Shown here: piece after piece, positions 3,701-20,914 of the stretch
Numbering within the stretch: position 1 is the stretch's first letter
Layout: the number at the start of each line of letters is the position of its first letter
Sequence record: SRR20825006_2923
Reading direction: 5' to 3' (one strand)
DNA: 35,234 bases
Program-made: the position numbers and the translations under genes
Notes under the pieces: model-generated
The model's database searches: none
The model's input: the letters and a program-made list of their open reading frames with translations, nothing else
What the model was told of the DNA's origin: nothing

Positions 3701-6201
3701 CTGCAAATGCAACAGGTTTGTATGTGCCTGGAACATGGAGAAATGAACTGGTTAATCTAAATGCATATATCGGGAACCCGAATGTGCTTGTGAAGTTCAG
3801 AAATATCGCTGGGTATGGACAGGCACTGTATATTGATAACGTTAATTTATCAGGAACATCAGCGCCTACTGCCATTTTCTCTGCTACGCCAAGTTCGGCT
3901 TGTACAGGACAAACTGTTACTTTCACAGATGCATCATCCAGTGCAACATCTTGGAGTTGGAATTTTGGAGTAGGTGCAACTCCTGCAACTGCAACGGGAG
4001 CAGGACCACATTCTGTAACGTACTCGTCAGCGGGAACTAAGACAATTACTTTAAGCATTAATGGTGGAGCAAGTACTTCTAATCAGAACGTAACAATTAC
4101 TGCACCGCCTGTTTCCGGAACACTTTCTGGAGTGCAAAATGTTTGCGTAGGATTAAATACAACATTCTCAAGCACGCAATCGGGTGGAACTTGGTCTTCA
4201 TCAAATACAGGAATTGCAACAATCAATGCTACTACAGGAGTTGTAACGGGAGCTGCTGCGGGAACGGCTACAATGACTTACACAGTAACTGGCGCGGGAG
4301 GTTGTTCGAATGCTACGGCAACGAGAACGGTAACTGTAACTGCGGCTCCAGTGTCTGGAACACTCTCAGGAACTCAAACAGTGTGTAGCGGTCTAACAAC
4401 CACTTTTGCTTCAACGCAATCGGGTGGAACGTGGTCGTCATCGAATACTGGAATTGCAACAGTTAACCCTACAAACGGCGTGGTAACTGGAGGTTCAGCG
4501 GGAACGGCGACTATGACTTATACCGTTACAGGTTCGGGTGGTTGTCCAAATGCATCAGCTACAAGAACAGTGACAGTAAATCCTACTCCATCAATTTCAT
4601 CTGGAACAGTTACAAACCCTTCGGCGTGTGCTACGCCAAATGGTTCGATTCAGATTTCAGGTTCTGCAACAGGAACAGTTTCGTGGACAGGCTCGGCATC
4701 AGGGAACTCAGGTTCTATAACGCTGCCTTATTTGATCAGCGGATTACCCGCAGGATCATATACGGTAAGTTTTGTGAATGGATTTGGTTGTACTTCCAAT
4801 ACCGTAAACGTGAATTTAGTTGATCCTACACCTCCAGCTTCACCAACAGTTACTGCAAGCGGAGTAACAACGTTCTGTGCGGGAGGATCTGTTACGTTAA
4901 CCTCTTCTCAAGCAACAGGAAATGTTTGGTCAACAGGAGCAACAACACAATCAATCGTCGTTTCATCAACAGGGGTTTATTCTGTGACCTATACAAATGG
5001 TGCAGGATGTGCTTCAACTTCGAGCGGAACTTCGGTAACAGTAAATGCGTTGCCTTCTACTCCGTTAATCTCAACGAGTGGTCCAACAACTTTTTGTGAT
5101 GGTGGTTCTGTAGATTTAACATCATCTTCCTCAACTGGAAATATGTGGTCTACTGGAGCGATAACAGAAACGATTTCAGTATCCATCTCAGGAACTTATT
5201 CAGTGACTGTAACTGATGGAAATGGATGTTCTTCATCATCTACGGGTACAGCCGTTACGGTGAATGCGCTTCCATCCACACCAGTAGTGACTGCAAGTGG
5301 GGCAACATCGTTTTGTTCTGGTGGCTCTGTAACGCTAACATCTTCTCAAGCAACTGGAAATGATTGGTCAACGGGAGAAACAACCCAATCAATTGTTGCG
5401 AATACCTCAGGGAACTATTTTGTTCAATATACAGACGCGAATGGATGTAGTGCTGTTTCCGCGACAACGGTAGTTACAGTAAACTCGCTTCCTGCAACGC
5501 CAACTATTTCGGCAAATGGTCCAACAACGTTCTGTGCTGGTCAGTCGGTAGGTTTAACGTCTTCGTCATCAACAGGGAATCTTTGGTCAAATGGTGGAAC
5601 AACACAAACTATTTCTGTAACAACAGCAGGAACTTATTCTGTTACAATAACAGATGGAAATGGCTGTTCAGCAACGTCTTCGTCTACTTCAATTACAGTG
5701 AATAATCTTCCTACGGTAACGTTGGGTAGCTTCTCTGACATGTGTGAAGCGGACAGTCCGATAACGCTTTCTGGCGGAACACCTGCTGGCGGAACATATT
5801 CAGGAACAGGTGTGAGCGGAACGACATTTGATCCAGCTTTGGCGGGAACTGGAACTGCTCAAATATCCTACACATTTACGGATGCGAATAACTGTCAAAA
5901 TTCGGCGCAGTCGAGCATTTTTGTTGATGATTGTGCAGGAATCTCGGAAGGAGTTTTAATCAATTATGATCTTTATCCAAATCCAACAGAGGGAGAAATC
6001 ACCATTGTTTTCGGAAGTAAAGTCCAGTTGATTCAGGCCTTACTTTATGACGCACATGGAAAGCAAATTCAGCGATTTGAATCTGTCGAAATGAATGATA
6101 CTTACCACTGGAGTTTAGTTGATCTGCCAAATGGAGTCTACTATTTGGAAATGATTACTCAAGATTCTGTGATCAGAGAAAAAGTACTTCTTCAGAAGTA
6201 A
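793..6201 (+). CDS. Large T9SS-secreted protein: Asp-box/BNR (VPS10/GH74-like) beta-propeller, PKD domains, Ig-like repeats and type A C-terminal sorting domain
   Basis: Signal peptide ending ASFG-Q; at least 11 Asp-box-like motifs, (S/T)-x-(D/N)-x-G-x-(T/S/N)-(W/F); PKD motifs (TWSWSFPGG, SWSWNFG); Thr/Ser/Gly-rich Ig repeats; C-terminal LYPNPT...LPNGVYYLEM...KVLLQK. Confidence 0.9.
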   Translation: MKTMNFYSRIRVLIAVLLFSSASFGQQDSNWVDMMQNPNSNFYDVQQAFEQYWVGKTIEKGKGYKQFRRWEEYMAPRVYPSGDMTLPSLSYENFLEWEAKQPSSGTSKSLLGTWTSMGPYGKPTGGGAGRLNFIRFDPVTPTKMYVGAPDGGLWISTNGGTSWTTNTDQLTVIGCTDIAIDPTNAQVMYLATGDGEAGDSYSVGILKSTNGGVTWNTTGLNWTASQGRRISKLLMHPTNSSILIAATSNGIYRTTDAGATWTQTSTGNFKDLEFNPGNANIMYTSGSILRRSTNNGVSWTTISSGLPTTGIQRISIAVSPANSAYVYLLIGRSSDQGLLGVYRSTDDGLTFTQRHGATGPNLLGWNTNGGDSGGQAFYDLSIAVSPTNINNVVTGGVNAWESTDGGTNWVLHAHWTGGGGAPYVHADIHDIVFTSGTTHYIACDGGLFRTTNSGNSFQDISGNLEIAQQYRIGLSTTIENKVIAGHQDNGTNMLNGGSWAQIYGGDGMDCFIDRTNSNTLFGSYVYGDYYRSTNNGANWTTITTGLPGGTWLSSWHQDPVTAATLYAGGRTALYRSTNSGTNWSALGTPSGSGSIIEFAIAPSNNQVIYSVKSNAVSRSANGGTSWTNVTGTLPVGSAALTNVAVSNTDPNKVWVTFSGYSAGNKVFASTNGGSTWTNISTGLPNLPCNTIVFENGSTTDPIYVGTDVGVYYKDDTQGTWTTFFSGLPRCGVRDLEIYYATGRIRAGTFGRGTWQSDLHTNGNDPPIADFTANQVVCVGSTVTFTDLTVGTPTTWSWSFPGGTPATATGQGPHTITYNTAGTYNATLTASNAYGSDVETKTAYITVSSATAGPLPIVQGFTAATFPPTNWVLNNLGIAYTWERTTTAGNSSAESMRFDNYTNDDRGSNDEIILPAANFTGVSAAQLTFDVAYAPYNGTYYDGLEVLVSTNCGASFTQVYFKENLTLATDPANATGLYVPGTWRNELVNLNAYIGNPNVLVKFRNIAGYGQALYIDNVNLSGTSAPTAIFSATPSSACTGQTVTFTDASSSATSWSWNFGVGATPATATGAGPHSVTYSSAGTKTITLSINGGASTSNQNVTITAPPVSGTLSGVQNVCVGLNTTFSSTQSGGTWSSSNTGIATINATTGVVTGAAAGTATMTYTVTGAGGCSNATATRTVTVTAAPVSGTLSGTQTVCSGLTTTFASTQSGGTWSSSNTGIATVNPTNGVVTGGSAGTATMTYTVTGSGGCPNASATRTVTVNPTPSISSGTVTNPSACATPNGSIQISGSATGTVSWTGSASGNSGSITLPYLISGLPAGSYTVSFVNGFGCTSNTVNVNLVDPTPPASPTVTASGVTTFCAGGSVTLTSSQATGNVWSTGATTQSIVVSSTGVYSVTYTNGAGCASTSSGTSVTVNALPSTPLISTSGPTTFCDGGSVDLTSSSSTGNMWSTGAITETISVSISGTYSVTVTDGNGCSSSSTGTAVTVNALPSTPVVTASGATSFCSGGSVTLTSSQATGNDWSTGETTQSIVANTSGNYFVQYTDANGCSAVSATTVVTVNSLPATPTISANGPTTFCAGQSVGLTSSSSTGNLWSNGGTTQTISVTTAGTYSVTITDGNGCSATSSSTSITVNNLPTVTLGSFSDMCEADSPITLSGGTPAGGTYSGTGVSGTTFDPALAGTGTAQISYTFTDANNCQNSAQSSIFVDDCAGISEGVLINYDLYPNPTEGEITIVFGSKVQLIQALLYDAHGKQIQRFESVEMNDTYHWSLVDLPNGVYYLEMITQDSVIREKVLLQK
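4108..4587 (+). repeat. Two tandem 240-bp (80-aa) Big_2-like Ig repeats
   Basis: PVSGTLSG..VC.GL.TTF.STQSGGTWSSSNTGIAT...GVVTG..AGTATMTYTVTG.GGC.NA.ATRTVTV occurs twice, starting at 4108 and 4348. Confidence 0.9.
4843..5718 (+). repeat. Four tandem 219-bp (73-aa) Ig-like repeats in ABAB order
   Basis: Units start at 4843, 5062, 5281 and 5500 with the pattern P...(S/N)G.T.FC.G.SV.LTSS...GN.WS.G..T..I.....G.Y.V..T...GC...S....(V/I)TVN.LP. Confidence 0.9.
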
Positions 6202-6342: not shown

Positions 6343-7341
6343 ATGCTAAAAGTAGGAGTGTTAGGTGCAGGTCACCTTGGGAAAATTCATATCAAACTCT
6401 TGTTAGAGTTGAATGATCGATTTCAATTTGTTGGATTTTATGATCCAAGTGATTCGAATGCCCAAACGGCTACTGAAACCTATGGAATAAAACGTTTCGA
6501 CACAATCCAAGGATTATTGGATGAGGTAGATTGTATCGATATTGTTACACCAACACTTTCTCACTTCGATTGCGCTTCTCAAGCTTTGAGAATGAGCAAA
6601 CATGTTTTCATAGAAAAACCGGTGACTGAAACAGTGGAGGAAGCTAAACGACTTATTGGATTGGCACAAGAAGCTGGAGTGAAGGTTCAAGTTGGACATG
6701 TGGAGCGATTTAATCCAGCATTTCAAGCGGCGATTCCTTACTTCAATAATCCAATGTTTATTGAAACACACAGACTCGCTTTATTCAATCCAAGAGGAAC
6801 GGATGTTCCAGTTGTACTTGATTTAATGATTCACGATCTTGATGCAATTCTGAGTGTTGTGAACTCAGGAGTTAAGAGAATTTCAGCTTCTGGTGTTGCC
6901 GTTGTAAGCGATACTCCAGATATTGCCAATGCTCGAATTGAGTTTGATAATGGTTGTGTCGCGAATTTAACCGCAAGCAGAATTTCCATGAAGAACATGC
7001 GTAAATCGAGATTTTTCCAGAAAGACGCATATATCAGTGTCGATTTTCTTGAGAAAGAAATGGAAGTAGTGCGCATGCAAGATGTGGAAGGAGAACCAGA
7101 CCCGTTTGACATGGTATTTGACATGGGAGAAGGGAAACCAATCAAGAAAATTTTGTTTGATAAGCCTGATATTGAACCAACGAATGCTATTAAGGAAGAA
7201 TTAGCTGCTTTTCACGATGCAATTGTGAATGATACTATTCCAATTGTACCACTCGAAGATGGATACCGTGCATTGGAAGTAGCGCAGAAAATCGTTGAAA
7301 AATTAAAAGCGTCAACATCTGTAATGGTAGACAATAAATAA
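6343..7341 (+). CDS. Gfo/Idh/MocA oxidoreductase, GnnA-like (possible UDP-GlcNAc 3-dehydrogenase)
   Basis: Rossmann VGVLGAGHLG, plus EKP, GHVERFNPA and RGTDVPVVLDLMIHDLD. ATG at 6343. Confidence 0.85.
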   Translation: MLKVGVLGAGHLGKIHIKLLLELNDRFQFVGFYDPSDSNAQTATETYGIKRFDTIQGLLDEVDCIDIVTPTLSHFDCASQALRMSKHVFIEKPVTETVEEAKRLIGLAQEAGVKVQVGHVERFNPAFQAAIPYFNNPMFIETHRLALFNPRGTDVPVVLDLMIHDLDAILSVVNSGVKRISASGVAVVSDTPDIANARIEFDNGCVANLTASRISMKNMRKSRFFQKDAYISVDFLEKEMEVVRMQDVEGEPDPFDMVFDMGEGKPIKKILFDKPDIEPTNAIKEELAAFHDAIVNDTIPIVPLEDGYRALEVAQKIVEKLKASTSVMVDNK

Positions 7342-17286: not shown

Positions 17287-17841
17287 ATGGCATTAACAGA
17301 ATCAACTTTATTTCCCCAAGGAACAATTGCTCCCGATTTTACTTTATTAGATACAATTTCGGAAAGGGAGCTATCATTAACTGAGCTGAAAGGGGAGAAG
17401 GGGACAGTCGTTTTTTTTATCTGTAACCACTGTCCGTTTGTGCTCCATATTAACGCTGAACTGGTTGCAATCGCTAACGACTTCACATCTAAAGGAATTT
17501 CTTTTATCGCAATTAGTAGTAATTCTGCCATCACGCATCCTCAGGATGGACCAGAGTTTATGAAACGACACGCGAACAAGATGAACTATCCTTTTCCATA
17601 TTTGTACGATTCCACGCAAGAAGTTGCGAAATCGTATGATGCTGTTTGCACACCTGATATTTATGTCTTCGATGAGTCTTTGCGCTCTGTATATCATGGA
17701 CAACTAGATAGTTCGCGTCCTGGGAATGATATCCCCGTTACTGGAGAAGATGTTCGAAGTGCGCTTTATATGTTGCTAGAGGGTGGGAATCCATTGGAGG
17801 TTCAAAAGCCAAGTATTGGGTGTAATATCAAGTGGCACTAG
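17287..17841 (+). CDS. Thioredoxin-family (AhpC/TSA-like) protein
   Basis: APDFTL, FICNHCPFV, YLYD.TQEVAK.Y.A.CTPD and PSIGCNIKW. Confidence 0.92.
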   Translation: MALTESTLFPQGTIAPDFTLLDTISERELSLTELKGEKGTVVFFICNHCPFVLHINAELVAIANDFTSKGISFIAISSNSAITHPQDGPEFMKRHANKMNYPFPYLYDSTQEVAKSYDAVCTPDIYVFDESLRSVYHGQLDSSRPGNDIPVTGEDVRSALYMLLEGGNPLEVQKPSIGCNIKWH

Positions 17842-17869: not shown

Positions 17870-17937
17870 AGGGTGATTGACGCATGCAGAAATGGTATTT
17901 TCCGCATTGCAAAACCAAACCGAATGACCTATTTTTG
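17870..17937 (+). promoter_or_regulatory. Promoter with two 22-bp-spaced regulator boxes and a -7 box
   Basis: AGGGTGATTGACGCAT (17870-17885) and ATGGTATTTTCCGCAT (17892-17907), then TATTTTTG at 17930-17937. The layout matches 20605-20694. Confidence 0.6.
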
Positions 17938-17942
17938 AATCA

Positions 17943-18083
17943 ACCGAAATCACTATTCAGGATTTTTAAAACGTTATGGGAGTTACGTAATAAGAATCGT
18001 TTTTTCGGGATGAAATTTCATTCTAGAAAACTGGAAATGAGATCACAACTAGTGGTAAAAGTCCGGTTCTGCCGGACTTTTTT
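17943..18083 (+). ncRNA. Putative structured small RNA (~140 nt), unannotated
   Basis: Lies between a -7 box and a terminator. Folded by eye: P1 17949-17955 with 18050-18056; P2 17961-17998 capped by GGGA; P3 18015-18043. No self-contained ORF beyond a 4-codon MGVT. The 5' end is estimated. Confidence 0.55.
18057..18083. terminator. Bidirectional intrinsic terminator
   Basis: AAAAGTCCGG-ttctg-CCGGACTTTTTT with an A run on the left and a T run on the right, between convergent units. Confidence 0.88.
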
Positions 18084-18111
18084 CTTTTCTATTGATTACT
18101 ATTGGTTGATT

Positions 18112-18768
18112 TTAAGCCTTTAGGATTCCGTGCTTTACTCCGTACATTATGAGTCCAATTGCATTTCTCGTATTGGTTTTCTTCATCATGTCGCTTCGAT
18201 GCTTATCTATAGTTCGCGTGCTTCTGAAAAGCTTGTCCGCAATTTCTTGAGTGGTAAATTCTTTGGACATTAATTCAAGAATGGCAATTTCCATCTGATG
18301 AAGTTCTACATCCTTATTCGCGAAGGTTGGAGTGATCTTCCCCTTATTAATCATCGATTTGATGAACAACTTAGAAACGCGATCATTAAAGTAGTATTGA
18401 TTATCGAGTACTCCTTGGATGGCGAATTCTAATTCTTCGAGATCATCATCTTTGGATAAGTAAGCATTTGCACCATTTTCGATTGCTTTTTCAACAAAAC
18501 TTTCGTCATCAAACATGGAAAGAATGATGATCTTAATGTCTGGATACTTCTTTCTGAGCTCGCGGCTGGTATCAATTCCTCCCATAATTGGCATCTTATA
18601 ATCTAAAATGGCAATATCGAGTATTTCTACTTCCTTACTTTCCAGCAAGGCTTTTCCGTTTTCGGCTTCAGTAATTACTTCAACACGATCAAATTGATTC
18701 AGCAAGTGGGAGAGTGCTTTTCTGAAAATTTCCTGGTCTTCTGCTATTCCTACTTTAATTTTGCTCAT
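18112..18768 (-). CDS. NarL/FixJ-family response regulator (REC + LuxR HTH)
   Basis: IAEDQ, ILDYKMP (phospho-acceptor Asp), LSM, YLSK, and HTH TTQEIADKLFRSTRTIDKHR. Confidence 0.95.
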   Translation of the reverse strand: MSKIKVGIAEDQEIFRKALSHLLNQFDRVEVITEAENGKALLESKEVEILDIAILDYKMPIMGGIDTSRELRKKYPDIKIIILSMFDDESFVEKAIENGANAYLSKDDDLEELEFAIQGVLDNQYYFNDRVSKLFIKSMINKGKITPTFANKDVELHQMEIAILELMSKEFTTQEIADKLFRSTRTIDKHRSDMMKKTNTRNAIGLIMYGVKHGILKA

Positions 18769-19540
18769 AATAAGGTGTTTGAATAATTACTTTTGTTCCA
18801 CCGTTCACCAACTTGTTGTATTCAATTGAACCATTCACCTGCTGAATTCTACTTTTAATATTTTTCAAACCTAGGGAGCCTGATTTGGTTAAATCATTTT
18901 CTGAAGGTGAAAAACCATCACCGTTGTCAATAATTTCAAGAACGTAATGATCTTGCTCAATTTTTTCCACAACAAGCACTTCGCTAGCGTTGGCATATTT
19001 TACAATATTATTCAAAATCTCTTGAATAACTCTATAAATTGCGAGTTCTTCTTGATCTGAATGAATATGTTGAGACAATTCACTTTGTTGAACCAAGTTA
19101 AATTTGATTTGCGAAGATCTTTCGAGCATTTCAATGAGCTTTCTCATAGCCATTTGGAGTCCCATGTCTTCCAAGATAGACGGCATTAACTCATTTGAAA
19201 TCCTTCTGACATCATTTCCGATAGATTTTATACTGTCTCCGATCCATTTTTTGTCTTCTAACTGCAAATCCATTTGAATCAATGACACTTTTAAAGCAGT
19301 CAGAGCAGAGCCGATTCCGTCGTGTAATTCCTGTGCAATTCGCTTTTGTTCTTTTTCCTTGGTCAGGATTACCGCTTCCATTAATTGCTTTTGCGTCTCA
19401 AGTTCAAGCTCTTTTAGTTCTCGCTGCTTTGTGTAAAGCCTTCTTTGATAGGCAATCACAAAAATGATAATCGCAAAGGCAAGTAACAGCATTCCCGCGG
19501 TTCCAAAAACAATAATTAAGTCAATCTTCTTCCAGTCCAT
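18755..19540 (-). CDS. HisKA_3 sensor histidine kinase with a single N-terminal TM and no sensory domain
   Basis: TM LIIVFGTAGMLLLAFAIIIFVIAY, coiled coil, RIAQELHDGIG, EILNNIVKYA, DNGDGF and GSLGLKNI. ATG at 19540 (MDWKK) is preferred over 19597. Confidence 0.93.
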   Translation of the reverse strand: MDWKKIDLIIVFGTAGMLLLAFAIIIFVIAYQRRLYTKQRELKELELETQKQLMEAVILTKEKEQKRIAQELHDGIGSALTALKVSLIQMDLQLEDKKWIGDSIKSIGNDVRRISNELMPSILEDMGLQMAMRKLIEMLERSSQIKFNLVQQSELSQHIHSDQEELAIYRVIQEILNNIVKYANASEVLVVEKIEQDHYVLEIIDNGDGFSPSENDLTKSGSLGLKNIKSRIQQVNGSIEYNKLVNGGTKVIIQTPYYEQN

Positions 19541-20139
19541 AGTACCAACGCGTAGCAGCAGTTTATAATAATATTTAATACCGAATGAACGTCCCAATAG
19601 TAACTAGCAACTTCCTTTTCAACATAGTTATAAGTCGCAAATAGAAACAGTGTTCCACAAAAGTAAATTAAGATAACACTTGTTAGTAAAAAGTAGGGGT
19701 CACGTTCTAATTTTTCAATTTTTAAGTCCTTGAAAAGTTGATTGAAGTAGATCAAGCAAACAATTATTAGAATAATTCCTTCCAAGTACCGCTGATTGGA
19801 GTTGAATTCCATTAAATTTTCAAGAAAAAAACTGTTTAAAATTGAAAGCGAATAAAAAATAGCGGCAAACACCTTGAGTAGCTTGAGTTTATCTTTTGAG
19901 AGTATATCCGAATATACCCATAGGAAAAATCCAAGTTCTATGTATGTATGAAGATGGAATAGATATAAGTTATATATTCCATTTTGTGCGAGAATTGTAC
20001 CAACAAGGTCGAAGAGAAACCAAATAAAAAGGAACACACTCAATTTCTTGAGTGTGTCATTTAGCTTCTTATAAAGCAGTAAAGCTATCAGTGCGGGAAA
20101 AGTCACTGAATAGGATGATATTATCGTTAGCGTTAACAC
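19516..20139 (-). CDS. Stand-alone 7-TM membrane protein, putative receptor subunit of the adjacent kinase
   Basis: Seven hydrophobic segments with short loops. The GTG start directly abuts the upstream TAA, and the 3' end overlaps the kinase start by 25 nt. Confidence 0.85.
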   Translation of the reverse strand: MLTLTIISSYSVTFPALIALLLYKKLNDTLKKLSVFLFIWFLFDLVGTILAQNGIYNLYLFHLHTYIELGFFLWVYSDILSKDKLKLLKVFAAIFYSLSILNSFFLENLMEFNSNQRYLEGIILIIVCLIYFNQLFKDLKIEKLERDPYFLLTSVILIYFCGTLFLFATYNYVEKEVASYYWDVHSVLNIIINCCYALVLWTGRRLT

Positions 20140-20451
20140 TTAGCTATTCAAGACATTTTTTGAAGAGCAATTATTAGGACATGGGAACCCCATATCTGCA
20201 ACTATCGCTAACATATCATCTTCACTTTCATCTGCGCCAACAAATACTAATTCGTTTTCTCCAGATTCTATGTCTTTTGCAAAGTAAACTCTAATTCCTT
20301 TGCATCCTGTTTGATTCAGAATGCTGAGCAATACTTCTTTACCCATAAATAATCCTAAGCGCGCCTTAGGGTCAGCGTTTCTGTACGCAGCTGTCATTTC
20401 TGATGCGAGAGTTAGTGGGATTGATCCTCCTTCAGTTCCGTTAAATGCCAT
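20140..20451 (-). CDS. Small soluble protein with GCxGIRVY and C-terminal PCPxxC motifs, function unknown
   Basis: 103 aa, no signal peptide, Cys50/Cys91/Cys95; first gene of the operon. Confidence 0.85.
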   Translation of the reverse strand: MAFNGTEGGSIPLTLASEMTAAYRNADPKARLGLFMGKEVLLSILNQTGCKGIRVYFAKDIESGENELVFVGADESEDDMLAIVADMGFPCPNNCSSKNVLNS

Positions 20452-20604
20452 TGTCAGTAGTTTTAAATTATTATTACTTCAACTATTCTGTTGATGAATT
20501 TACTAAATTCTCAATGCTTTTTACTCAGAGAATTTACAATAATGTGTACGAAGAAAGATAAGTTATTGGAATTAAGGTTATTAATTCTTAAAAAATGCGC
20601 ATTA

Positions 20605-20694
20605 TTGGCAGTTCCCGTATGAATAAATGCGGAATCCCGCAATTAGATTTAGTAGTTCCCGTGTAGGAATCCTTAATTCCTCCTAGTTCCTTTG
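20605..20694. promoter_or_regulatory. Three 22-bp-periodic regulator boxes in a divergent promoter region, with a near-consensus -7 box
   Basis: TTGGCAGTTCCCGTAT (20605), ATGCGGAATCCCGCAA (20627) and TTAGTAGTTCCCGTGT (20649); TTCCTTTG at 20687-20694. Confidence 0.65.
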
Positions 20695-20713
20695 TGATAA
20701 CTGAAAAAAAACA

Positions 20714-20914
20714 ATGGAACGTGTAATAATTAATGTAATTAATCTTTCTGTTGACGAAGAAATTAGGCAACTGGCTGAACGCTTGAGTTGCCCTAAGGCG
20801 GTAGTGATCTATTGCTCGAAGAAAGTTGGACCTTCTGTATCTGCCATAGAGAGCTATTGGTCGATGAATAAAGAATGGCTCATAAAGTATAAAGGAAAAC
20901 CAAGATTGTGCTAA
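20714..20914 (+). CDS. DUF3606-like small protein
   Basis: INLSVDEEIRQLAERLSCPKAVVIYCSKKVGPSVSAIESY resembles the DUF3606 pattern as I recall it (IN....E...W...lG.s...L..Av..VG.s...v..yL). Confidence 0.6.
   Translation: MERVIINVINLSVDEEIRQLAERLSCPKAVVIYCSKKVGPSVSAIESYWSMNKEWLIKYKGKPRLC

Follow-up and report, generated by a model that had tools for sequence, protein, structure and literature searches.

A four-gene Bacteroidota locus that probably encodes a split-sensor two-component system with a small RNA output

How does a histidine kinase that consists of little more than a membrane helix and a catalytic core receive its signal? The question is raised by a locus in sequence record SRR20825006_2923, a stretch of 35,234 nucleotides (nt) that was analysed as a whole and is called the window here. 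Four genes follow each other closely on its minus strand (20451-18112). The first gene of this operon (20140-20451) encodes a small protein of 103 amino acids (aa) with a C-terminal CPxxC motif, and the second (19516-20139) a 207-aa membrane protein with seven transmembrane (TM) helices, the 7-TM protein, which we propose as the membrane sensor module. They are followed by the genes for a 261-aa histidine kinase (18755-19540, with its ATG at 19540) and a 218-aa response regulator of the NarL/FixJ type (18112-18768), composed of a receiver (REC) domain and a GerE helix-turn-helix (HTH) domain. The tight coupling of the genes given in a preliminary description of this DNA was found again in every detail: there is a gap of 0 nt between the open reading frames (ORFs) of the small protein and the 7-TM protein (20140/20139), the kinase gene overlaps the 7-TM gene by 25 nt, and the kinase and regulator genes overlap by 14 nt, the kinase ending at 18755. 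Our analysis suggests that the locus is probably a split-sensor, multi-component two-component system (TCS) of a Lia- or Uhp-like kind with a small RNA (sRNA) as an output. The earlier reading thus stands with respect to the cassette, the kinase, the receptor-like fold and the boxes on the flanks, but not with respect to the small protein as a ligand or the analogy with Agr/Com quorum sensing. In the full-text literature (supplementary files not covered), no description was found of the gene combination, of either upstream protein family, or of a function for DUF3606, the family resembled by a protein encoded next to the operon.

The class of the system follows from its kinase and regulator. 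Pfam gives only HisKA_3 (27.5 bits, cut-off 24, E 4.6e-06) and HATPase_c (48.6 bits, cut-off 26.4, E 1.2e-12) for the kinase, and Response_reg (79.5 bits) and GerE (38.5 bits), without LytTR, for the regulator. A HisKA_3 kinase adjacent to a REC-GerE regulator makes this a HisKA_3/NarL two-component system. In NCBIfam, the kinase matched only the C-terminal halves of the MctS, UhpB, LiaS and NarX models, far below their cut-offs, and the matches of the regulator (MctR, NarL and GacA among them) were partial and all below the equivalog cut-offs. The kinase begins with a short stub, MDWKKID. A single hydrophobic helix (residues ~8-30) comes next, and a basic stretch and a coiled coil lead on to the H-box ELHD, in which the phospho-acceptor position is His73 by our own count; Asp56 of the regulator is the presumed phospho-acceptor there. 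This arrangement leaves no room for an input domain and has no extracytoplasmic part, which agrees with the earlier description of the kinase as having one TM helix and lacking an input domain. Because the kinase offers only a membrane anchor and a catalytic core, we propose that the 7-TM protein encoded just before it would provide this input in trans.

The linkage of the four genes was followed first among close relatives. Scanning species-representative genomes with a small 7-TM alignment yielded 13 close loci, nearly all in metagenome-assembled genomes (MAGs) of Crocinitomicaceae/Flavobacteriales; we refer to individual loci by L numbers. By tblastn, the small-protein and 7-TM genes are adjacent in 13/13, the kinase comes next in 11 (one cut by a contig end), and the regulator is present in 10. 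The contig of L011 ends inside the 7-TM gene, and in L009 a 91-aa stub with a TM helix and a coiled coil stands in the kinase's place behind the pair. L005 and L012 hold the same four genes beside ftsZ/ftsA, with a kinase and a regulator only ~40% identical to those of the window. Since these two loci keep the four genes together in a different context, the cassette moves as a unit, and its conservation is not mere inherited synteny. The closest relative of the window is L013 (DEAD-box helicase 85%, regulator 84% and kinase 68% identical). It comes from a record labelled as a Henriciella pelagia MAG; its relatives are all Flavobacteriales, and the alphaproteobacterial bin looks like a binning error. 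In L009, the pair is preceded by a divergent gene for a polytopic protein of 319 aa that carries an HTH of the LuxR type at its C-terminus (features at 4479-5438 on the minus strand and 6528-6803 on the plus strand). This protein was considered as a 7-TM relative and found to be unrelated (hhalign probability 1%).

The linkage extends across the phylum. In an even set of 401 Bacteroidota genomes, 75 contained 7-TM matches at E<=1e-10, often several per genome, and the neighbourhoods of the 30 best 7-TM loci, one per genome, were compared. In 26 of the 30, the next gene downstream, on the same strand, encodes a histidine kinase, and in 24 of these 26 the longest ORF for the kinase either overlaps the 7-TM gene or adjoins it. 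Seventeen of the 26 partners are HisKA_3 kinases, 15 of them short like that of the window and most of these with a GerE regulator behind them; the remaining two are a PAS-HisKA_3 kinase (L038) and a kinase of 520 aa (L041). The other nine partners are PAS-HisKA(-REC) kinases. In all 26, whichever their class, a short stub is followed by one TM helix at the N-terminus, in many of them with a G-T pair. As this helix is the sole feature common to the partner kinases, it is the main reason to think that the helix itself may be the coupling element. The small protein follows the same pattern. A hidden Markov model (HMM) built from 16 close homologues matched the ORF immediately before the 7-TM gene in 21/30 loci, rising to 25/30 after two local iterations; with a 36-sequence alignment, 78 matches were found in 50 of the 401 genomes, 67 of which have a 7-TM match just downstream on the same strand. 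In L066, where the small protein seemed unlinked, it is followed by a divergent 222-aa polytopic protein and then a HisKA_3 kinase with one TM helix. In both the close relatives and the phylum sample, homologues of the small and 7-TM proteins therefore co-occur with kinase and regulator genes, and the preliminary view of the four genes as a conserved cassette is borne out.

Such linkage would also be expected if the small and 7-TM proteins were co-regulated cargo, that is, controlled by or co-transcribed with a system whose kinase senses something else; a transporter or membrane enzyme with its cofactor protein would be an example. Linkage alone gives no direction, and it cannot separate an input partner from cargo of this kind. 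The pair also persists without a directly downstream kinase in 4 of the 30 loci (L030, L032, L037 and L042). A kinase follows one gene further on in two of the four, after an extra ORF of ~184-209 aa; no signalling gene was found in the extended flanks of L030, and L037 has a 164-aa ORF with a weak PAS_8 match and no kinase even with extended flanks. Furthermore, partner kinases with a PAS domain bring their own input domain. However, the pair precedes kinases of two unrelated classes that have nothing in common but the single TM helix, no other input is present in the short HisKA_3 kinases, and the gene order is fixed, with overlaps of the kind that serves translational coupling. The conserved boxes described below lie on the far side of the pair and face the gene of a mini-protein. 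Taken together, these points make the cargo explanation improbable in our view.

For the 7-TM protein, we examined the family and the predicted structure. It has no Pfam family at E<=0.1, no NCBIfam match, no sequence relative in the PDB by sequence profiles and no named cluster in the ESM atlas. Sixteen sampled relatives likewise gave no meaningful Pfam match, and sampled relatives are labelled 'hypothetical protein' by their sources. The family is nevertheless large: a full HMMER scan of 1.84 billion representatives returned 1658 relatives at E<=0.001 and 377 at E<=1e-10, where word-index searches had given only 3 and 2, and the best 150 relatives are nearly all stand-alone proteins of 190-230 aa. 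AlphaFold2 (AF2), run with 60 sequences, predicted seven long helices with a mean predicted local distance difference test (pLDDT) score of 95.2. Foldseek gave only weak matches to rhodopsins and G protein-coupled receptors (GPCRs), with E>=0.14 and TM-scores up to 0.65. In an exhaustive alignment of the model against 48,161 chains, the top 50 were all of the GPCR/rhodopsin type, with Z 10.9-14.0 over 186-206 aligned residues and a root-mean-square deviation of 3.4-4.7 A; Z values below ~13 are common for helical bundles. For this reason we assign the modelled protein only provisionally to the GPCR/rhodopsin fold type, and do not claim homology. The model is thus in line with the earlier suggestion of a receptor-like protein. 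One candidate identity, that of a retinal protein, is ruled out for the window protein, as its TM7 has no lysine.

The topology of the 7-TM family points in the same direction. Lysine and arginine together number 9.45 per sequence in the loops assigned to the inside and 2.42 in those assigned to the outside, and this concentration of basic residues in the assigned cytoplasmic loops predicts an N-out, C-in orientation. It follows from that orientation that the most conserved polar positions of the family, N57, H62 and an EFNSNQRY loop containing N113, would face the periplasm, where they may form the polar patch expected of a binding site; the family has no near-invariant cysteine. We propose that the 7-TM protein exposes this patch to the periplasm and would be coupled to the kinase by contacts between helices inside the membrane. 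In L013 (5424-7359) and at G340:C1:2383416-2386104, one small-protein gene is followed by three 7-TM paralogues in tandem and then by one kinase gene, an arrangement that looks like diversifying receptors or a diversifying membrane module. A separate observation within the 7-TM gene of the window is a perfect inverted repeat of 10-11 bp (ACACACTCAA..TTGAGTGTGT) at 20034-20057, which has a terminator-like score on both strands.

The small protein is equally without named relatives, with no Pfam family at E<=0.1, no NCBIfam match, no PDB sequence relative by sequence profiles, and only unnamed Bacteroidota clusters in the ESM atlas. In the window it ends in FPCPNNC. The C-terminal CPxxC is kept in 15 of 16 close homologues, L013 lacking both cysteines, and in 25 of 27 distant domains, the remaining 2 having two cysteines at a different spacing. 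The residues after the motif are variable, and the third cysteine of the window protein, C50, is alanine in L004 and L007. Conservation covers a whole acidic domain of ~95 aa (net charge -6 in the window protein, family median -5). AF2 modelled two helices and a three-stranded sheet (pLDDT 74) with a C-terminal tail of low confidence; this model found no match in Foldseek, and a likeness to CopG was dismissed, the best VIA match having a Z of 3.5, which is not meaningful. No signal or leader peptide was detected. Everything about the protein, acidic and without a signal peptide, says that it is cytoplasmic, as far as its sequence can tell.

These properties bear on the idea that the locus works like Agr or Com quorum sensing, with the small Cys protein as a processed and exported precursor, the 7-TM protein in the place of AgrB, and the product sensed from outside. 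The gene order does resemble agrBDCA, and the Cys motif lies near the C-terminus in a tail of low model confidence. However, the absence of a signal or leader peptide, the conservation of the whole domain and the variability beyond CPxxC do not suit a peptide precursor, and among the flanking ORFs scanned in 30 phylum loci, genes for processing or export (for a protease or an ABC exporter) do not recur beside the small protein. Neither upstream protein has the Pfam match that Agr proteins would give, the 7-TM family lacks a near-invariant cysteine, the kinase has no outside loop, and the regulator carries GerE and not LytTR. The idea that the small protein is a ligand or the source of the signal is therefore not supported, and we consider quorum sensing of the Agr/Com type a most unlikely account of the locus. 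In the split-sensor reading, we infer that the small acidic protein would dock from the cytoplasm on the inner loops of the 7-TM protein, which are rich in lysine, on the kinase's basic juxtamembrane segment, or on both, acting as a modulator or second input that is possibly thiol or metal dependent.

Some further observations concern the small protein and thiol chemistry. The CPxxC domain is tandemly duplicated within one ORF upstream of the 7-TM gene in L041 (2228-2890, minus strand), and in L034 (2245-3093, minus strand) two adjacent, near-identical small CPxxC genes lie upstream of the 7-TM gene. In the window, an AhpC/TSA-Redoxin family cytoplasmic protein with a CNHC motif is encoded at 17287-17841 on the plus strand, directly upstream of the box of the sRNA candidate and on the same strand. 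In L004 and L007, inspection by eye found a thioredoxin-like protein apparently encoded at the equivalent place downstream of the regulator, on the same strand as the sRNA. Together with the CPxxC protein, these neighbours hint at a thiol or redox theme.

The output side of the system was addressed through the flanks of the operon, which had been described as carrying the same boxes. On the right, the candidate array of regulator boxes (20610-20662, unstranded) consists of AGTTCCCGT at 20610-20618, the palindrome TGCGGAATCCCGCA at 20628-20641 and a second AGTTCCCGT at 20654-20662, in a 22-bp register. On the left, the box before the sRNA candidate (17885-17906, plus strand) reads TGCAGAA (17885-17891)-N8-TTCCGCA (17900-17906), with a degenerate repeat, TGACGCA, 22 bp upstream. 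Each is followed on the plus strand by a -7-type promoter box: TATTTTTG at 17930-17937 before the sRNA candidate, which matches TAnnTTTG, and TTCCTTTG at 20687-20694 before the DUF3606-like gene, an imperfect form of the same motif. Between the end of the proximal heptamer and the TTTG lie 27 nt on the left and 28 nt on the right. In PMC9723704, TAnnTTTG at -12 to -5 is given as the -7 box of flavobacterial sigma-A. With the -7 box in that position, the proximal heptamer would fall at about -42 to -36, which from the sequence would be a class-II-type activator position, and transcription of the mini-protein gene would start at ~20699.

Relatedness and spacing, more than the statistics of the window, support these boxes. 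When the loci were oriented alike and TGCGGAA/TTCCGCA was marked on their flanks, all 9/9 loci that carry the mini-protein gene showed, in order, a TCCG half-site, ~13 nt, the palindrome TGCGGAAWTCCGCA or a close variant, ~15 nt, and TTCCGTM, which is followed after 27-28 nt by TTTG; successive TTCCG heptamers are spaced by 22 bp. A TAnnTTTG box precedes the mini-protein gene in 7/9, the TA being imperfect in the window and L013. On the sRNA flank, an alignment of eight loci has TTCCG.A and TA..TTTG invariant at the same 27-nt distance. The boxes are present in all nine loci whose regulator is >=70% identical to that of the window and absent from L005 and L012, with their ~40% identical regulators. 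In the 35-kb window alone, TGCGGAATCCCGCA is the only palindrome match with <=1 mismatch, and the palindrome at <=3 mismatches is expected 1.26 times by chance; TTCCGCA occurs 9 times vs 4.4 expected, and the promoter scan is not enriched (14 sites vs 14.7 expected). It is accordingly the conservation at the same spacing in related loci that carries the box claim, and in this respect the earlier description of matching boxes, promoter-proximal to the sRNA candidate and the DUF3606-like gene, is confirmed. Genome-wide, the palindrome (<=1 mismatch) has 0-5 sites per genome vs 0-1 for a reversed control. In L046 (1501, 2855) and L051 (1501, 2849), perfect or near-perfect palindrome boxes ~1.35 kb apart bracket a gene for a 417-aa TonB_C/MORN protein, and they adjoin genes for a 186-aa unknown protein and a DUF2459 protein; these box-flanked genes may be further members of the regulon.

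The left box faces a candidate sRNA of ~150 nt (17942-18090, plus strand), convergent with the regulator gene and ending in a hairpin at 18057-18081, a strong terminator on the plus strand, and a T run. The fold of the candidate beats all 200 shuffles (z -3.97), and syntenic homologues occur in L003, L004, L006, L007, L008, L010 and L013. The body of the predicted RNA is variable, with the conserved blocks GAGCCGGGAGTCT and AAATCTAATTTCTAGTAGTAG in six loci, followed by CTAGT.G and a strong hairpin. The terminator stems differ by paired changes (GTCCAG/CTGGAC, GCCCCAT/ATGGGGC and GTCCGG/CCGGAC), and besides the terminator the consensus fold has a small hairpin, with a single compensatory pair. 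Six relatives were used to build a covariance model, which scored L013 with 25.2 bits (E 0.0027) at the syntenic place. A search for RNA reads over the region returned no RNA run; the one run that may be RNA covers 18130-18392 alone, which lies in the regulator gene. BLAST with the sRNA matched 2/151 genomes, and the second of the two covariance-model matches among these genomes has neither the operon nor a box nearby; by sequence, the RNA is either narrowly distributed or diverging too fast to be followed beyond the clade. Rfam gave no family match at threshold over the whole window, the best sub-threshold match being sroD over the terminator (32.2 bits vs 50). Pairing of the RNA with the start of the mini-protein mRNA gave no consistent signal in six loci tested with 30 shuffles each: only 1/30 shuffles was as good or better in 2/6 loci, vs 14-24/30 in the other four.

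The right array faces the mini-protein gene (20714-20914, plus strand, 66 aa), which is divergent from the operon. Relatives of the mini-protein are present in 8/13 close loci by tblastn, and their alignment has nine invariant positions, including C26, C34, G39, S41, A44, M51 and N52. The match to DUF3606 (PF12244) stays below threshold, with 17.1 bits vs 24.3; among nine orthologues, 2 matched at E<=0.1, again below the cut-off, the best with E 0.0018.

Could the boxes, the 'sRNA' and the mini-ORF be chance features of AT-rich spacers, the hairpin being a shared terminator of convergent genes? The motif statistics within the window are weak, as would be the case if they were. This is countered by the recurrence of the heptamers and of the 27-28-nt distance to TAnnTTTG in 8 sRNA loci and 9/9 mini-gene loci despite the divergence around them, by the recurring CTAGT.G-terminator end of the sRNA loci with its paired stem substitutions, and by the conservation of the mini-protein at the amino-acid level. 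A chance origin is thus very hard to believe. We propose instead that the phosphorylated NarL-type regulator would bind TTCCGCA-type heptamers, arranged as an inverted pair and as 22-bp repeats (two helical turns), which are centred near -40 of two sigma-A type promoters, and that its binding would switch on the convergent ~150-nt sRNA and the divergent 66-aa protein. The regulator probably also feeds back on the operon.

A NarL-family regulator with a palindromic box just upstream of an sRNA promoter is what the locus, where the sRNA is a candidate, shares with GacS/GacA-RsmY/Z. The regulator partially matches the UvrY/SirA/GacA model as well, at 96.2 bits vs the equivalog cut-off of 280 (NF007018), so it is not a GacA/UvrY equivalog. 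The kinase differs in not being of the hybrid unorthodox GacS type, and CsrA/RsmA (PF02599) was found in 0/5 related genomes, where the controls E. coli, B. subtilis and T. maritima were positive. The Gac-like logic suggested earlier is therefore reasonable as wiring, from a NarL-type regulator to an sRNA, but Rsm-type titration by the sRNA is unlikely. By eye, the sRNA candidate has five GGA triplets vs ~1.5 expected (a rough estimate), one of them in the conserved block GCCGGGAGUC; given the lack of CsrA in related genomes, any protein partner of this RNA would have to be another one.

Other known systems resemble the input side. In LiaFSR and VraTSR, a HisKA_3 kinase without an extracytoplasmic sensor domain works with a NarL-type regulator, and the system is autoregulated through boxes near its own locus. 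In these Firmicutes systems, a co-transcribed accessory membrane protein sets the activity of the kinase, a role established according to the abstracts of PMC3543457 and bioRxiv 10.1101/2025.01.23.634444; the 7-TM gene would have the same place here. The present locus differs in that the accessory protein has a predicted seven-helix fold of the GPCR type and no LiaF/VraT domain, in its extra soluble CPxxC protein, in a kinase with one TM helix where theirs has two, in its sRNA output and in belonging to Bacteroidota. The kinase is not a LiaS equivalog (NF052531 Strep_LiaS, 67.8 bits vs a cut-off of 450), and no LiaF/VraT-type accessory protein was found by Pfam for the 103-aa and 207-aa proteins and 16 relatives (for the 7-TM relatives at E<=1) or by NCBIfam. 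In UhpABC of E. coli, the membrane receptor UhpC signals to the HisKA_3 kinase UhpB, which phosphorylates the NarL-type UhpA. The kinase core here matches the C-terminal half of the UhpB model (106 bits, far below the cut-off of 408); UhpC is a 12-TM homologue of the major facilitator superfamily and UhpB has an 8-TM domain of its own, in contrast to the 7-TM receptor and the 1-TM kinase of the window. Polytopic membrane domains also serve as kinase input in 7TMR-DISM and 5TMR-LYT sensor kinases. There the membrane domain is fused to the kinase, whereas it is separate here; the Pfam models of these domains matched neither the 7-TM protein nor its relatives. Thus, the locus does not belong to LiaFSR/VraTSR, UhpABC, Agr or Gac/Rsm, and its logic is like that of LiaFSR/VraTSR and UhpABC.

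The likeness to Lia allows a variant in which only the nature of the input differs: a stress module whose intramembrane-sensing kinase reports membrane or envelope perturbation, with the 7-TM protein, alone or together with the small one, as an inhibitor or scaffold like LiaF/VraT, and with the wiring and outputs proposed above. A kinase without an extracytoplasmic part, partial NCBIfam matches that include LiaS, and the established accessory proteins would suit this variant, and the extra palindromes that flank a TonB_C/MORN gene in two related genomes add an envelope theme. However, the conserved polar patch predicted to be periplasmic (N57, H62, N113) and the tandem paralogues are more typical of ligand-binding receptors, and the proteins of the window and the 16 relatives have no LiaF-type domain in Pfam. 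We consider the Lia-like stress module unlikely, and the best placed of the alternatives discussed here.

Several results weigh against the split-sensor reading and were taken into account in calling it probable. Besides the ambiguity of gene linkage and the PAS domains noted above, no fused 7-TM-kinase was found among longer proteins in a search with a 60-sequence alignment, which is weak evidence. A small-protein match was detected upstream of only 69 of 150 7-TM matches and not of the other 81, so the small protein is frequent and not obligatory. The covariance model scored the window's own sRNA, which is divergent within its group, weakly (18.1 bits, E 0.1), at the syntenic place, and matched 2/151 genomes, credibly only its own source genome. 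Finally, the -7 box of the mini-protein gene of the window is imperfect, and inspection of 20452-20600 by eye showed no canonical TAnnTTTG that would serve the operon itself.

A broader proposal, which we offer tentatively and hold to be less probable than the split-sensor reading of the locus itself, is that Bacteroidota possess a modular system in which a stand-alone GPCR-fold receptor for a periplasmic ligand and a soluble CPxxC 'transducer' serve interchangeable single-helix kinases of the HisKA_3 or PAS-HisKA type, with an sRNA-centred regulon in the clade of the window. If true, bacterial two-component signalling would include a receptor/transducer/kinase architecture that has not been described for it, and about a fifth of the phylum's sampled genomes would contain it. 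Two large families without Pfam, NCBIfam or PDB relatives would be given a function, as partners of histidine kinases, that is open to test. To our knowledge, the signals of most Bacteroidota two-component systems are unknown, and single-helix kinases without a sensor are difficult to make sense of; a dedicated 7-TM input acting in trans would explain this whole class of kinases. We also know of hardly any documented case of a TCS-controlled sRNA in Flavobacteriia. With its box, its -7 spacing, its sRNA candidate and its mini-protein, the locus would provide a rare, fully specified regulatory chain for Bacteroidota.

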